Positions 9,042 through 40,351 are shown, numbered from the stretch's first letter. The stretch is 64,000 nucleotides of DNA from Nitrosopumilus sp. (GCA_965205675.1 OZ242186.1:544001-608000), one strand, 5' to 3'. Program-made: numbers and translations. Notes: a model not told the origin generated them from the letters alone.

Positions 9042-9358
9042 ATTTTCTTTAAATCTGTTGCAATAATATTTCCAACTTGTGGTTTGCCCATGCTGTCATA
9101 TCTTGATTTTGGCATTGTAATTGTCATTTGAGTTTGTTGATATGATTTGATATTTACTTTTGGTTGTGCTTGTAAAATAGCTTCTAATAATGGCATTACT
9201 TGCTCTTTAGTGTCTGAATCTAAGTTTTTTGCAACATTTTCAATGATCATTTGTTGTTGTGATACTGGCTCAGTTGAAATATTCTCAATTAAAGTTAATT
9301 GAATTATCTGCCCATTATCTATTATTTGTGTAATTTTAAATTCATTTGTAGCTGACAT
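9038..9358 (-). CDS. Hypothetical protein
   Basis: 106 aa ORF convergent with the YyaL-like gene. Confidence 0.7.
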
Positions 9359-22141: not shown

Positions 22142-23262
22142 TAACCATAACCATATGTGCCAAAATCAGCTAGGAAATTAGATGGTACTTGCATTCGTGC
22201 CAAAACTCACAAGAAGACTAGAACTGCCAACAAACACATTACCTTACCTACCTGAAAGAAAATATTTGATGTTTGTAGGATTGGATGGTCACAAAAACTC
22301 TGTATAGGTTGCAGCAATAGATAATATTGGCAAATTATTATTTAACAAAAAGATTTCCAGTGATTTTTTTGCTATTGATAAAATCGCGGCCGAAATTCCA
22401 AAGAATGCAAAATATGTCCTAGAGTCAATTATCTGTCTGGTATGGTTTGTACAGACACATGACAGGCAAATTACATCGTGATGTTGTATTATCAAATCCA
22501 TACAACACAAAGATAATTGCTGCATCCCTCAAAAAGACCGATAACATTGATGTGTATCAACTTGCAAATCTGTTACGAGGAGGGTATTGCAGAATTATTT
22601 GTATCAGATCATACTATTGTGTAATACAGACAGCTTGTAAGACATCGACACAAGATTATACGCGTTATTGTAAAGATGAAGAATTCCATACATGGCATTA
22701 CACTACAGAAGGGAATCCATATTAAAGCGACACCCTTCTTCTCAACACATACGAGCCACTTGGAAATCTGAAAAGTTACAGAGTAGACTCGTATCTGCAA
22801 AGCATAGGATTTCACAAAAAAGAGGTTGCAAAAATAGATTCCATGATACGCCGTATGGTGATTGGAAATCATGATGTGCATATTTTGACATCAATGCTTG
22901 ATGTTGGACCCTATACTGCATTGACCATATTTTCAGAGATTGCAGACATTGAGAGATTTGCTGATTCCCACAAACTGTGCGCATATGCAGGAGTTGTTCC
23001 ATCAGGCGTGAAATTCTGCAGATACAATACACCATGGCAGTATAACAAAACGAGGAAGCATGACATTGAGATAGGTTCTAACAGAATGCATTCACATTCA
23101 TGCAATCCATGCTAAAAACAACGACATTACAAAATTTTATAATCGCATAAAAAAGAAGAGAGGGACATCAAAGGCTGCCGTAGCTTGTGCATCAAAGATA
23201 CTGCGAATCATATACTGGATGTTAAAGGAGAGAAGAGAGTTTGTGGAACATTATAGTTAGGA
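22142..23262 (+). mobile_element. IS110-family element, pseudogenised (copy A)
   Basis: FVGLDGHKNSV*VAA, KTDNID, GPYTAL..SEIADIERF..KLCAYAGVVPS; multiple stops and frameshifts; homologous to 26784-27888. Confidence 0.9.
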
Positions 23263-23371
23263 CTGCTTGTTCTATATTGATAATAAGGATCTTGTTTAGA
23301 ATTGATACAAAAGCTTACAGTTCCTATTTGGCTATTATTTCATATTATTATACTAAGATAAAGTAATCTGA

Positions 23372-23794
23372 TTATACTAGATGGTTAGAATTTGGAATTA
23401 CTTTGTAGATTTTTACAATATATTCTCCTTCAAAAATATTTACAAACTCTCCTGTATTGGAATCTAGGTTTCTTACTCTGAATTTGTATTCGTAAGATCC
23501 ATCTCCTTTTACATCTACTTGGGCAAAGTGTACTGGGTCTTCTCCTTTGTAAAATTGGATGACTACTGGATATCTTTCAGCATATTCTGATGCCTCTCCT
23601 CTTACAGTTCCCCATGGGAGTGTATTTTCTTTAGGTATTGTCATTACAGTTGTTGTTTTTTCCAAACTAATCTCCTCATCAATTGGAGTAACTGCAACTT
23701 GATTTGATTCTGCAACAATATCTTCTGGTACCATCATCATTCCTACTACTGCCATAATTGATACTACTAATAGAACACTTGATTTTGTATGCAT
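23372..23794 (-). CDS. Hypothetical exported protein
   Basis: Signal peptide; beta-rich domain (DGSYEYKFRV..GEY.VK). Confidence 0.75.
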   Translation of the reverse strand: MHTKSSVLLVVSIMAVVGMMMVPEDIVAESNQVAVTPIDEEISLEKTTTVMTIPKENTLPWGTVRGEASEYAERYPVVIQFYKGEDPVHFAQVDVKGDGSYEYKFRVRNLDSNTGEFVNIFEGEYIVKIYKVIPNSNHLV

Positions 23795-24400
23795 ATATCA
23801 TTACTTTCCAAAGCTACTTAAAAAATTTGTTACTAATTTGTTCTATTTTCATTCCTAGTTATGATGATTCTTCTTCTAAATCACAACATATTTTGTATAT
23901 CCGTTGATCTTTGGAATTTTTCAATATTTCTTTCCTGTTTTGATCGCATCTCCATATTTCTCGTCAAATCTGGCTTTCATGAATTGATTATGCTTTTCAT
24001 TAATTTTAATCAGGCTTTATTTTCTCTTTGAATTATTTTTCTTTTGATTACATATGTATAATTCTCCCTCAAAATTAATCCTTTGAAATCCAATCCAAAA
24101 TTTTCTCTTTCTACCTGTCATATTTTTTATGATTTTTTACAAAATCTTTGATGGTGTTCGATATTGAATCAGATTCAGATTTTTCCTATTTTTGAGAATT
24201 ATTTGGAGTAGGATTTTTCTAGATATTTCTCCCTCAAATTTTCTTTGAAATACGTCCATAGGGTTGGTTGGTTCTTCAGATTTTAATGGTCACTATGGTC
24301 TTACTCTCTTTGAAATTTGTATAATTGAGATGTTTTTTTATATTATTTTGTCTATTTTGAATATTTTTTTTCAGTTAGTATTTAATGATGTATATCTCTA

Positions 24401-25105
24401 ATGGATAGCATCATGGATGACTCTGCTGATGTTGTAGATGAAGTTAATGCATTACTCAAGCTTGGCGTGGGTGACTCGTATAGATTAGAGCATATCAAAC
24501 AGGCTTTTGTTCAAAACAAGATTATTTGGGTTACTGATGAGAATTATCTAAAACGCCTGAGAGAAAAATATCTTGTAAAACAAACCTCTGATATAGAATC
24601 TGATGGTGAAATTGTTTTTGAAAATGAACCTGAAGAAAAAGAAACCATCCATTGCTGGAAATGTGGTAAAAAAGGTCCGTTAAATGCTAATTTCTGTATG
24701 ACTTGTGGTACTTCAATATTTGAAATTGATGCCCCTTCTCATCTTATATCTAAATCAAATAGTTCTGGTCTTGTAAAGTCTATTCCATTAAAAATCCCCA
24801 TACTTGTAGGTATTCCGATTTTAATTTTAATAATTATTGGTGTAGGATATACTCAAGGTTATCTTGATAATGTTCTTGAGCGTTCATCCTCTAATGTAGT
24901 TCCCATTCCGACAGTTGTTGTAAATGATGGTGTTTCTTCTAGTAATGCTGATTCCCCATGTGGTCCTGGAACTGTGTTTGATTCTGTAACTAATTCTTGT
25001 GTCTTAGGAACTGCATCTACGTCTACTTCTAGTAATGCTGATTCCCCATGTGGTCTTGGAACTGTGTTTGATTCTGTAACTAATTCTTGTGTTTTAGATA
25101 ATTAA
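24401..25105 (+). CDS. Zinc-ribbon membrane protein with two extracellular Cys repeats
   Basis: CWKCG..NFCMTCG, TM helix, 2x SSNADSPCG(P/L)GTVFDSVTNSCVL. Confidence 0.8.
   Translation: MDSIMDDSADVVDEVNALLKLGVGDSYRLEHIKQAFVQNKIIWVTDENYLKRLREKYLVKQTSDIESDGEIVFENEPEEKETIHCWKCGKKGPLNANFCMTCGTSIFEIDAPSHLISKSNSSGLVKSIPLKIPILVGIPILILIIIGVGYTQGYLDNVLERSSSNVVPIPTVVVNDGVSSSNADSPCGPGTVFDSVTNSCVLGTASTSTSSNADSPCGLGTVFDSVTNSCVLDN
24936..25097 (+). repeat. Near-perfect ~72 bp direct repeat, period 90 bp, intragenic
   Basis: cttctagtaatgctgattccccatgtggtc(c/t)tggaactgtgtttgattctgtaactaattcttgtgt occurs twice. Confidence 0.9.
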
Positions 25106-25192
25106 CAATTATTAAAACAAATTCCACAGATTGGAGTGGACTCCTGTTTTTAGTACCACTTTTTGCATAATCTTACATACAGTCTGATTCAT

Positions 25193-26014
25193 TTATGTTT
25201 TCATCTCCCACAACTCCATAAACTCATCAGGTATAAGATATCCCAATGCAGAATGAATCCTGGAACCATTGTAATCGATTCGTGCTTTCTCTAGAGCAAC
25301 TTCGGCTTCCTGATAGTTTGCAAACTCGTACCTCCACAAGTATTCCTTCTTGAGTGTCTTGTGGAATGATTCGACATGTCCGTTTTGTTCTGGCGTGTGG
25401 TGCCAGATGAATTCGTGTCTTATTCCAAGTAGAACAACTGCTTTTCTGAAATCTCGGCTGTTGTATTGCGAACCGTTGTCAGTTCTGAGAATCAGTTTTG
25501 TGCAATCAGGCTTTGCAGTAGCTACTGCATTAATGATGCTGTCAATTGCAGTGCTCTTTGGAGCTGCCACATCAAATGAATGCCAAATCCATTTCCTGCT
25601 AAATGCATCAATCACGTTAAAGCAGTAGCACCATCTGTCAACCCCACACCAGACATATGTGATGTCTGTCTGCCACAACTGGTTTGGTGCATCAGGCTTG
25701 AATAATGTTCTGGCAGATTTGATGATGTCATTTTTGGTCTTTTTAGGCTCAATCCAGCCCAATTTGTGAAATATTCTTCTGATTTGTTTTCTGTTTACAG
25801 GCTTGTTCAGTTCCCTTGAGACTTGGGATGCCATGCGTCTGGTTCCATAAGTTGGCCTTTGTTTTCCAATCTTTTGAACTACATCAGTTACTGCAGGATC
25901 TGTCTGAATCCTTCTTGGTGACTTTGAGTAATACCATTTGGATTTTGAGACTCCAATTAATAACAATGACTTGTTCAAACTGATGTGTTTGTTCAGTTGA
26001 TTCACTGCAGTCAT
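25193..26014 (-). CDS. IS3-family transposase OrfB (DDE/rve)
   Basis: YGTRR, WQTDITY, RTDNGSQY, QNGHVESFHKTLKKE, RIHSALGY. Confidence 0.95.
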   Translation of the reverse strand: MTAVNQLNKHISLNKSLLLIGVSKSKWYYSKSPRRIQTDPAVTDVVQKIGKQRPTYGTRRMASQVSRELNKPVNRKQIRRIFHKLGWIEPKKTKNDIIKSARTLFKPDAPNQLWQTDITYVWCGVDRWCYCFNVIDAFSRKWIWHSFDVAAPKSTAIDSIINAVATAKPDCTKLILRTDNGSQYNSRDFRKAVVLLGIRHEFIWHHTPEQNGHVESFHKTLKKEYLWRYEFANYQEAEVALEKARIDYNGSRIHSALGYLIPDEFMELWEMKT

Positions 26015-26301
26015 CTTTTCTGGTTCTCCAACGTTTTTTTTAAAATGTCATTGGCAATTGTGATCTCGCCGATTAGTTTTTTGAGGGAATCATTTTCCTT
26101 TTGCAGATTCTTGCAGACATCTCCGTTTGGTGTGCCATTTAATGATGCCTTGCCACCTTCTACAAATCGTTCCCTCCATTGGTAGAATGTCTGTGGATGA
26201 ATATTGTACTTTCTGCACAACTCTGCAGTTGCAATGTTTGTGTTTAGTGACTCTAAAACCACTCTTGACTTTTCTGCTGATGTGAATTTGCTCTTTACCA
26301 T
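26011..26301 (-). CDS. IS3-family transposase OrfA (HTH)
   Basis: FTSAEKSRVV..AELCRKYNIHPQTFYQWR, leucine-zipper LQKENDSLKKLIGE. Confidence 0.93.
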   Translation of the reverse strand: MVKSKFTSAEKSRVVLESLNTNIATAELCRKYNIHPQTFYQWRERFVEGGKASLNGTPNGDVCKNLQKENDSLKKLIGEITIANDILKKTLENQKR

Positions 26302-26373
26302 GAGGGTAAGCCTCCCAAGTTATCTGAAAAGTGTATGTATGCTACCGGTCCTACTCTAGAGGGGACCAGACCA

Positions 26374-26593
26374 CATCCATTATTGCTACTTGAAGAAACT
26401 TCTTGTGCAGGTCAATACCCACAAACATGCCTTTCTTTGGATTTTTTCTAATCTGTTTGTTTGTAATCTTTTTTGGAGCCGAGTATTTACGAACCTTGGA
26501 ACTAGATTCATTTTTTATGCTATCTGATTTCCTTGCTTTCTTATTCACATATCCATGTGAATCCCTTTTAACTATTGTCGGTATTTTTGCCAT
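26374..26593 (-). pseudogene. 5' stub of a further IS110 transposase (copy C), cut by the IS3 element
   Basis: Basic N-terminal extension then MFVGIDLHKKFLQVAIMD, ending exactly at the IS3 end. Confidence 0.85.
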
Positions 26594-26629
26594 ATTAATT
26601 ACAGCTTACGCTAATACACTCATACTTTC

Positions 26630-26770
26630 AATCACAGATGAAACCAGACACATATCCATTCGGGGTTCTCCCCCAGTACCATCTTCATCCATTTATTAGG
26701 TGAAACCGCGGTTATAGTTTCGAGGTATTATGCATCCTCAATGTGAAAACGCGGCCAAACTCCTAACTGT
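26630..26770 (-). ncRNA. Candidate IS110 bridge/seek-type guide RNA
   Basis: Two consecutive stem-loops with large internal loops; G-U pairs favour the minus strand; lies directly 3' of an IS110 transposase. Confidence 0.55.
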
Positions 26771-26783
26771 AATGTTTTACAAA

Positions 26784-27873
26784 TTATTGATGACATTGAA
26801 TAAATTCTCTCCTCTCTTTTAGCATCCAATAAATGACACGCAATAACTTTGATGCAGCAGCAACTGCTGCCTTTGAGGTCCCTCTCTTTTTCTTAATGCG
26901 ATTATAAAATTTTGTAATGTCGCTATCTAGTGCGTATCTAACATGTGCATGAATTGCCTCCACTAGCAACCATCTTAGCATGGTGCTTCCTCTCTTTGTA
27001 ATTCTTCCGTGATGTATTGTATCTGCAGAATTTCTCACCGATGGAACAATCCCTGCATATGCACATAACTTGTGAGAATTTGAAAATCTACTAATCTCTG
27101 CAATTTCTGAGAATATGCTCAATGCAGTGTATGGTCCAACTCCAGGTGTGGATATCAAAATACACACATCAGGATTATCATTTACCATGCGACGTATCAT
27201 GGAATCTATCTTTGCAACCTCCTTTTTGTGAAATTTTATGCTTTGTAGGTACGAATCTATTCTACAACTCTCCAATTTTCCAAGTGCACGTATGTGTTCT
27301 GAGGAAAATGGTGTTGCTTTGATATGGATTCCCTCCTGTAGTGTAATACCATGTATGGAATTCTTCATCTTTACAATGATGCGCACAATCTTGTGTCGAT
27401 GTCTTACAAGCTGTCTGTATTGCACAATTGTGTGATCTGGCACAAATGATTCTGCAATACCCTCCTCGTAGCAAATTTGCAAGATGGTACGCATCAATTT
27501 TATCAGTCTTTTTGAGTGATGATGCTATTATCTTTGTGTTGTATGGATTAGATAGTATAACATCAAGATGTAATTTGTCTGTCATGTGTCTATAAAGGCC
27601 ATACCCGACAGATGATGACTCTAAAACATATTTTGCGTTCTTTGGAATTTTAGATGTAATTTTGCTAATAGCAGAAAAATCACTGGAAATCTTTTTGTTA
27701 AATAATAATTTGCCAATCTCATCTACTGCTGCCACCTGTACAGAGTTCTTGTGAACATCCAATCCTACAAACATCAAATACTTTTTTTCAGGAAGGGTAG
27801 TGTGTTTGTTTGCATTTCTTACTTTCTTGATACGAATGCAAGTACCTTCTAATTTCCTAGATGATTTTGGCAC
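26784..27873 (-). mobile_element. IS110-family transposase (copy B), split into two overlapping frames by a single frameshift near 27455
   Basis: DEDD RuvC-like: VGLDVHK, VLES, KTDKIDA; Tnp domain: PGVGP, AYAGIVPSVRNSA, ITKRGS..LR..LVEA, VAAASKL. Confidence 0.92.
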
Positions 27874-28018
27874 ATATGGTTATGGTTACCAGTACCTCTC
27901 TTGTCAATAGTTTTCATTTATCTATTAATTATGACTAATTGCTATTAGTTGTAATTAGTCAGCATGGTTCCACTTCCTCCTGCAAGATGCGGTGGGCTGT
28001 GCTGACTTTAAGAAATAA

Positions 28019-39133: not shown

Positions 39134-40351
39134 TTGGTTAATGTCTTAGTGATTGGTTCTAGTTGACACAAATATGCTCTATCTTGGAAGTTATCTCAAA
39201 GTGATAAAGTTGAAACTGTTTTCATTACTCCTGTAAATGGAGGCACTAAAAACAATATTCCGATAAATGTCAATGATTTAGATGGCCTAGCTGATTTTGC
39301 ATAAAAAAATAATTGTTTTACTGTAGTTGGATCTGAAGATCCTTTGGTTGCTGGAATTGTTGATAAATTTAGCAAATTAAATCTCAAAGTTTTTGGACCT
39401 GCTCAAAAGGCTGCTCATCTTAAATCAAGTAAGATTTGGACAAAAGATTTCATGAAACAAAATTCCTACTGCTAGATTCGAAATATTTAATCATGCTCAA
39501 AAAGCTCAAGAGTATTTACAATCCCTCAATTACAATGTAGTTGTAAATGCTGATGGTCTTGCAGCAGGAAAAGATGTAATTGTTTGTAATAGTAATGATG
39601 AGGCAATATCATCCATCCAAACAATTCTGATAAAAAAGATATTTGGTAATGCAGGTAACAGATTCATAATTGAAGATGAGAATTGATGGCGTTGAATCCT
39701 CATACATTGCCCTCTCTGATAGCGATGTTGCTATCCCTATGACATCAAGTCAAGATCACAAGCGAATTTTTGATAATGATGAGGGTCTCAATACCGGTGG
39801 GGTGCGTATTCTCCAATTCCTATCATTGATGATAGTTTAACAAAAATTATCCAACAAGAAATAATTGAGAAAACCATTAATGCAATGAAAAAAGAAGGCA
39901 TTTTGTTTAAGGGATTTTTGTATGCTGACATTATAATTCGAGATGGCAAACCTTTTGTTTTAGAGTATAATGTACGAATGGGGGAGATCCTGAATGTCAC
40001 CCAATCACATTGTGTATGGATTCTGATTTGTATGATTATTTTGTTGTCCGTGTTGAATGCAATTTGTCTGCATCATCTTCTGCATCTTGGAAACCCCAAT
40101 CCGCAGTATGTGTGATATTGGTGTCAAAAGAATACCCTGAATCTTATTCAAAAAATGATGAAATTATTGGATTTGATTCTGTTTTGATGGTGTTATAGTT
40201 TTTCATGCAGGTACAAAAAAATCTGATGAGAGAACTCTTTCAAATGGTGGACGTGTGTTGGGAATAGCTGCATTAGAGTCTGCAGTTACTAGCATATGAA
40301 GCAACTAAAAAAATCACTTGGTCTCAGAAATACCATCAAAATGATATGTAG
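39134..40351 (+). pseudogene. purD: Phosphoribosylamine--glycine ligase, heavily degraded
   Basis: Fragments VNVLVIGSS*HKYALSWKLSQS, VVGSEDPLVAGIVD, ADGLAAGKDV, SQDHKRIFDNDEGLNTG, LEYNVRMG, FHAGT..SNGGRVL with many stops and frameshifts. Confidence 0.93.

Follow-up and report, generated by a model that had tools for sequence, protein, structure and literature searches.

A frame break shared by two diverged IS110-family copies in a Nitrosopumilus genome is probably a derived lesion rather than a recoding signal

When two diverged copies of an insertion sequence (IS) carry the same frame break at the same place in the transposase gene, does the break mark a site of translational recoding, or is it a lesion that the copies have come to share? 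This question is raised by a 64,000-nucleotide stretch of a Nitrosopumilus sp. genome (GCA_965205675.1, OZ242186.1:544001-608000; hereafter the window), which contains two IS110-family elements, copy A and copy B, whose transposase genes are split at an identical sequence. An initial annotation of the window had offered three explanations: possible programmed recoding, an inherited lesion in a lineage mobilised in trans, or recurrent loss of TA from TATATT. We find that the shared break is most probably a derived frameshift lesion and not a recoding signal, and that mobilisation in trans, gene conversion or transport in tandem units would have spread it. What the copies carry is an ordinary young one-base insertion, with its derivatives, that is out of frame in all full-length copies of this genome and absent from close relatives.

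The frame break in the window and across the genome

The two copies and their parts are located in the window as follows:

26550..27880, minus strand: copy B, a complete IS110-family element ('B-type', 1331 bp), delimited by aligning 9-11 genomic copies with their flanks and by motif positions
27460..27774, minus strand: copy B, first open reading frame (ORF1), homologous part M1-G105, DEDD/RuvC-like (PF01548)
27451..27468, minus strand: frame-break site of copy B, CGA GGA GGG TAT TGC AGA
26784..27458, minus strand: copy B, second open reading frame (ORF2), homologous part from IAESFVPD... to the stop, containing the end of the DEDD domain and Transposase_20 (PF02371)
22150..~23262, plus strand: copy A, a degraded 'A-type' copy of a diverged lineage, 82% identical to the B-type
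22576..22593, plus strand: frame-break site of copy A, with the same 18-mer as in copy B

Copy B is bounded by ACCATATGTGCC on the left and CACATGGATA on the right, with non-coding ends of ~105 nt and ~230 nt, respectively. Its ORF1 starts at an ATG at 27774 and encodes 170 aa; after G105, 65 out-of-frame codons lead to a stop at 27262. The homologous part of ORF2 lies in the +1 frame, beginning with an ATT at 27458 and continuing for 228 codons to the stop at 26784, and this frame is open from 27497. The annotation of copy B as free of any other lesion held up, as a single 0-to-+1 frame break separates 105 homologous codons from the 228 that follow, with no further stop or indel. Copy A, whose ATG is at 22269, has extra indels and contains three stops if read in the frames of copy B.

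The 18-mer shared by the two copies, CGAGGAGGGTATTGCAGA, is found at 22576-22593 on the plus strand and at 27451-27468 on the minus strand, within one or two bases of where it had been placed initially. The chance expectation for a given 18-mer in the window is 3e-7, a null that is barely meaningful here because both places belong to homologous IS copies with 82% identity. ORF1 of copy B matches DEDD_Tnp_IS110 (PF01548; E = 1e-14, 55 bits, cut-off 29) over model positions 1-123 of 155, the remainder of the domain is encoded in ORF2, and ORF2 matches Transposase_20 (PF02371; E = 2.1e-21, 76.5 bits, cut-off 21.3). The break thus follows the KTDKIDA stretch yet falls within the DEDD_Tnp_IS110 envelope, and not just after the DEDD domain as had been proposed. 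Relatives do encode the protein expected across the site, RGGYIAE, but in the allele of copies A and B the +1 frame has no Tyr codon, and a shift into it would yield RGG-IAE.

The genome, a single contig of 2.01 Mb with 33.7% G+C, holds nine full-length B-type copies that are 97-100% identical to copy B, besides partial copies. All nine are out of frame at the break site, and none has another stop or indel. Seven read CGA GGA GGG ATA CAT T (GGAGGGATACATT) and one reads CGA GGA ATA CAT T (GGAATAC), while the GGGTATT allele is found in copy B alone among the nine; beyond copies A and B, this last allele occurs only as a variant in one partial copy elsewhere in the genome. A partial chimeric copy reads GGAAGGTATT at the site. 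The nine copies lie at distinct places, representing at least eight loci, and their 5' flanks differ, with two copies sharing one repeated flank. Two copies, at 39439 and 62512 of the contig (G000:C1), have 9 A residues, against 8 in the others, in the run that lies 6 nt before the transposase ATG (window equivalent ~27785).

The same genome contains 15 paralogous sites that are in frame, 11 in elements we call C-type and four in a third type, which read GGAGGATACATT, that is, [CA]GA GGA GGA TAC AT, or [CA]GAGGAGGATACAT. As the majority B-type allele differs from these paralogs by one inserted G, the B-type break amounts to one extra G. The in-frame paralogs also bear on the Shine-Dalgarno (SD)-like GAGGAGG that directly precedes the break and had been put forward as a stimulator of frameshifting: all 15 carry it, so that GAGGAGG simply represents Arg-Gly-Gly codons and the SD-like argument fails.

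The break site in related genomes and sequencing runs

A protein search identified seven full-length relatives in frame at 94-98% identity, namely P0002 and P0126 (330 aa), P0003, P0135 and P0139 (363 aa), and P0123 and P0124 (366 aa); these seven and five truncated relatives all read LLRGGYIAESFVPD. The DNA of the relatives, retrieved from metagenome-assembled genome records of Nitrosopumilus sp., comprised nine full-length and two truncated loci, all in frame and reading CGAGGAGGATACATT. The nine full-length loci belong to one genome (G397), are ~99% identical in DNA to the copies described here and contain intact 330-aa ORFs, such that an uninterrupted transposase ORF is present in nine of nine full-length loci there and in none of nine here. 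Because relatives carry one uninterrupted ORF, the copies in the window are broken members of the IS110 family.

We then compared the break site itself by a pattern search that allowed any 0-6 nt between its flanks. Among 151 genomes of the genus, the site was in frame in 0 of 9 cases in the genome studied here (G000), 11 of 11 in G397, where the sites are the loci of the fetched relatives' DNA and are counted once, and 1 of 1 in G408 (GGAGGATATATT). Among 401 genomes of the family, it was in frame in 1 of 1 cases in each of G394 and G408. Outside this genome, 13 of 13 break sites from three genomes (G397, G408 and G394) are therefore in frame, and together with the in-frame proteins this speaks against programmed recoding. 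P0055, a protein of a further assembly, likewise begins in the +1 frame ('...ICYEEDYIAESF') and contains another lesion towards its end; judging from the protein, its gene may carry a +1 allele. A DNA search with the whole element across the family (301 genomes, two candidates scored per genome) returned nothing above 73% identity outside this genome, and a metagenome pattern scan for all alleles of the site gave 0 matches.

Contigs of four public sequencing runs from four studies were aligned to one +G copy. One of these runs may underlie this assembly and others may underlie the compared genomes, meaning that not all are independent. The first G of GGG was left out at 81.4 of 81.4 depth in run X1 and at 39.8 of 39.8 in run X2, in contigs of 340 and 520 nt that were otherwise identical. 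Run X3 contained both alleles together, with the G left out at 9125 of 42946 depth (21%), a minority that could come from the split tenth copy described below, and in run X6 it was left out at 0 of 28.6. The in-frame allele was thus seen in three of the four runs, and the GGG allele is real in at least two (X6 and X3). The extra G is a recent change, given that nothing else distinguishes the in-frame contigs over 340-520 nt. Separately, the word depth of the element in X3 is 10,000-56,000 (L002:1501-2700; a run of 430 million letters), far above that of a ~10-copy repeat in ordinary shotgun data.

A tenth B-type copy in the genome keeps the in-frame allele. It reads CGAGGAGGA-TA, followed by a 1.1-kb IS630-like element and then TA-CATTGCAGAA, and is interrupted at the TA of GGA-TA-C with a duplication of the TA (GGAGGA-TA-...-TA-CATTGC); its halves are open for 105 and 225 codons. 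As this copy is a split in-frame allele, the lineage once had an autonomous B-type copy, which was inactivated at the very position of the break. The IS630-like element (G000:C1:442698-443797, outside the window) is 1.1 kb long with two ORFs, is present in eight full copies that are 99-100% identical, and its insertions have 2-nt YA duplications, with no evident target consensus among the eight copies. It sits exactly in the break site of the only B-type copy with the in-frame allele, a coincidence that is unexplained. Tc1-type elements leave footprints on excision, and footprints of the IS630-like element were considered as a source of the break alleles; we rejected this candidate as unsupported, since the eight copies have YA duplications without a target consensus and a TA-type footprint would not produce +G.

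Spread of the lesion and alternative readings

We propose that the ancestral sequence was CGA GGA GGA TAC ATT (R-G-G-Y-I). Most copies in this genome have one extra G (GGAGGGATAC), which probably arose once in this lineage and which shifts the last two thirds of the coding sequence into the +1 frame, whereas the related allele of copies A and B is 3 nt shorter (GGAGGGTATT). The broken allele may have spread by one or more of three routes: through an IS110 recombinase and guide RNA supplied in trans, from the formerly intact copy or from intact paralogs; through gene conversion among copies; or by carriage within tandem units with a second IS110-type element. The ends of the +G copies are identical to those of in-frame copies. 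Complementation of broken copies is mechanistically reasonable, as the IS621 bridge RNA functions when expressed in trans (PMC11208160). Of the explanations offered in the initial annotation, the best supported is the second, namely that the lesion was inherited and its lineage is mobilised in trans.

Copies A and B are inverted relative to each other and 4.9 kb apart, and copy B would have received its A-type allele from copy A by a short gene-conversion patch; such a short conversion appears to be the simplest account of the shared allele. At all diagnostic positions copy B is B-type, even at markers just 4 nt before and 8 nt after the A-type patch (within 22 nt). Gene conversion is frequent, since B-, A- and C-type segments are mixed within single copies in both genomes. 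The A-type allele itself may have originated from the +G allele by loss of ATA, or from in-frame GGATATATT by loss of TA and one substitution. Loss of TA from TATATT, the third explanation offered initially, may thus have given rise to the A-type allele; in-frame GGAGGATATATT is found in a related genome. By DNA, copy A is about equally far from the B-type (82%) and from L098 (80%), and tblastn matches of the relatives to copy A ran across wrong frames.

That one defective allele dominates is a recurring feature of this genome, seen also where recoding is implausible: of the 14 C-type copies, 9 share a frameshift allele that is 2 nt shorter at codon 15 (CAAGTAATAAATGG versus in-frame CAAGTAGCAATAATGG), and intact 331-aa ORFs are left in 2. 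The B-type copy at G000:C1:754596-755701 is orthologous to an in-frame locus of the relatives, L066, with flanks that are 85-90% identical and elements that are far more alike, which means either that the target was hit twice independently or that the elements were homogenised or transferred recently.

The initial annotation had reasoned that programmed recoding would be refuted by in-frame sequence in most relatives together with relaxed selection in the split copies. The former was observed (13 of 13 sites), while the latter was not demonstrable: point changes private to this genome were 9 non-synonymous to 8 synonymous, compared with 4 to 9 in the in-frame genome (Fisher p = 0.28), in a count that left out the clustered differences at codons 265-330 (C-type conversion tracts) and the break site. 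This ratio is a trend towards relaxation, not a result.

Four observations weigh against a simple lesion. First, non-synonymous changes in the 9:8 count fall short of a naive 3:1 neutral ratio (binomial p = 0.04), although this becomes p = 0.21 under a transition-weighted expectation and gene conversion confounds the count. Second, both frames are open in all nine broken copies, which is weak evidence, as fewer than one stop is expected among ~17 point changes. Third, distinct alleles (+G, GGAATAC, GGGTATT and the inferred P0055 allele) fall within ~8 nt and share one +1 relation; these could reflect a hotspot, serial 3-nt changes of one lesion, or selection. Fourth, no intact B-type copy is left in the genome as a source of transposase. 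Two intact C-type and three intact third-type ORFs are candidate helpers that might act on B-type ends. The residual oddities, that is, broken copies that are otherwise intact and alleles clustered within 8 nt in one frame relation, leave a small probability for recoding or selection.

Leaky or programmed +1 frameshifting, which we consider unlikely, would have tRNA-Gly on GGG in the P site with the next base (A; U in copies A and B) skipped. The +G copies would then be autonomous but self-throttled, producing little full-length transposase, and the junction peptide of the +1 product would span GGYIAESFVPDHTIVQYR. Such leakiness at GGG-A would explain the spread to at least eight loci with both frames intact in nine of nine broken copies, as well as later changes of 3 nt (loss of GGG or of ATA), which preserve the frame relation. 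The IS110 family would thereby gain its first reported case of translational recoding, in an ammonia-oxidising archaeon, and programmed frameshifting would extend to RNA-guided IS110 recombinases, with a bearing on their regulation. In its favour, GGG is also the rarest Gly codon (5.2 per 1000), and the divergence between the A and B lineages gives an omega of 0.22 before the break and 0.19 after it. These omega values, however, indicate only that the lineages diverged as working genes and are accounted for if they did so while in frame, and the recent extra G, the in-frame relatives and the in-frame paralogs with GAGGAGG all stand against recoding. The genome has tRNA-Gly genes with anticodons CCC, UCC and GCC, one of which is cognate to GGG, and AUA, the 0-frame codon that follows, is frequently used (23.1 per 1000). 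At the site, GGA GGG AUA / GGG UAU, we found no slippery heptamer, stop or rare codon adjoining the P-site slip, and the 120 nt from the site fold no better than shuffled sequences (z = -0.21). Past the break the 0 frame runs for ~65 codons with no stop near the site, and upstream of it the +1 frame is open for just 18 codons.

Among the papers searched, none mentions both 'IS110' and 'programmed frameshift'. The word 'frameshift' is absent from the main text of PMC11208160, and a table in PMC3196728 lists two IS110 elements with one ORF and members of IS1, IS3 and IS5 with two (IS1/IS5 with -1 or +1 shifts).

The breaks might instead have spread because the ORF1 product, consisting of the DEDD part and an out-of-frame tail, inhibits or regulates the recombinases of the family. 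Truncated transposases that act as repressors are known in other elements, several alleles are found at one spot just past the catalytic Asp stretch, and broken alleles predominate in two IS110-type families of this genome. We nevertheless regard a selected truncation as very unlikely, given that the C-type break at codon 15 leaves an ORF1 of only 17 aa, and hence no common truncated product, that the out-of-frame tail is not conserved as protein, and that relatives are in frame.

A split enzyme, in which ORF1 and ORF2 would be made as two polypeptides that assemble into an active recombinase, is highly improbable. ORF2 would start from an ATG 11 codons upstream of the Tyr, which opens the +1 frame just upstream of the break and from which P0001 and P0121 were called, and the four presumed catalytic acidic residues, identified by eye, are all in ORF1. 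The same ATG is present, out of frame, in the in-frame relatives, and hence is no new feature; moreover, the break cuts the DEDD domain at position 123 of 155, and no relative has a two-gene layout, the short forms being truncations or fragments except for P0055 (+1 frame).

That the break is an artefact of assembly or sequencing, with GG overcalled as GGG and the homopolymer error carried into all copies by polishing, would fit a difference in homopolymer length and the mixed run X3 (21% of depth without the G), but is hardly credible when GGG is seen in two runs from two studies (28.6 of 28.6 in X6, ~79% in X3), when 11 C-type sites sharing the 17-nt context CGAGGAGGATACATTGC and four third-type sites sharing GAGGAGGATACAT were called GG in the same assembly, and when the other alleles at the site are not homopolymer changes.

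Tandem junctions, neighbouring elements and known systems

Two further elements lie on the right-end side of copy B in the window:

26374..26549, minus strand: C-type IS110-family element, left end and first 18 codons (MFVGIDLHKKFLQVAIMD), abutting the right end of copy B and cut by an IS3-family insertion
25193..26373, minus strand: IS3-family element spanning at least this interval, with overlapping orfA (26011-26301) and orfB (25193-26014); HTH_Tnp_1 and rve/rve_3

The IS3-family element interrupts the C-type gene after codon 18, with the junction TGGTCTGGTCCCC at 26361-26373, and the rest of that C-type copy is not downstream. Other C-type copies on the contig (G000:C1) include intact ones at 1109278 and 617033 and broken ones at 202650 and 815182, and one C-type start lies at 26408-26428 of the window. 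Also within the window, a 234-aa ORF at 24401-25105 encodes a zinc-ribbon-like CxxC...CxxC motif, a hydrophobic segment and a C-terminal direct repeat of ~25 residues (SSSNADSPCG[PL]GTVFDSVTNSCVL).

Every B-type copy immediately precedes the left end (TGTGAATAA...) of an element of the C-type or the third type. The junction reads ATTCACAT-GGAT-ATGTGAAT (window 26531-26565), where solo C-type copies have AATAACTATA. In five cases the same B-type/C-type tandem recurs, the C-type partner having a frameshift allele of its own. The pattern suggests either that the IS is directed to the left junctions of related elements or that tandem units are mobilised as a whole. Insertion is sequence-specific, with a 5' flank of TAACYATA(ACCATA) before the left end in 11 of 11 B-type copies (target TAACTATA/TGTGAATAA). 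No long terminal inverted repeats were seen, although no systematic search for them was made.

The B-type right end (window 26550-26783, ~230 nt) contains AACTATAACC, identical to the flank before the left end, and the homologous right end of C-type-like copies differs in a seemingly compensatory pattern. By analogy with the IS1111-group, this right end is a candidate guide (bridge) RNA, which we offer only as a lead. An Rfam scan of 26300-28000 gave two sub-threshold matches, to models of a long non-coding RNA and of U6 (E = 0.17 and 0.26), which we took as chance.

Collectively, the data presented here make the locus a cautionary case, in that an identical break in two diverged copies resembled a recoding signal and comparison within the genome and across genomes shows a young lesion that has spread among copies. 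They also describe an uncharacterised and very active IS110-type family in Nitrosopumilus-like archaea, in which defective alleles dominate two sub-families and elements insert precisely before one another.

Among known systems, the B-type element resembles the IS1111-group of the IS110 family. Members of this group such as IS4321/IS5075 insert into the ends of other transposons; likewise, the B-type inserts beside a fixed sequence, in front of another IS110-type left end. Also shared are DEDD_Tnp_IS110 with Transposase_20 and a short left and longer right non-coding end (~105 and ~230 nt), a layout described for IS1111 in PMC11208160. The element differs from the group in its archaeal host, in that all copies are frame-broken, and in that the guide RNA is here only a candidate.

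With the -1 frameshifting of IS1/IS3 and the +1 frameshifting of prfB, the B-type copies share two partly overlapping ORFs that encode the full enzyme when fused and, in the case of prfB, a purine-rich SD-like stretch upstream. In prfB, such a stretch lies upstream of the +1 frameshift site, and IS3 elements have frameshift motifs of their own. The B-type, in contrast, has no slippery heptamer, in-frame stop or rare codon, its SD-like stretch is also found in in-frame paralogs, and its break is absent at 13 of 13 related sites.

The copies are likewise comparable to non-autonomous IS copies: their intact ends are identical to those of the in-frame element, the lesion is common to many loci, and the in-frame allele is present in the population and, disrupted, in the genome. 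Unlike such copies, they are full length with a single-base lesion rather than internally deleted, and the assembly holds no working helper of the same type.

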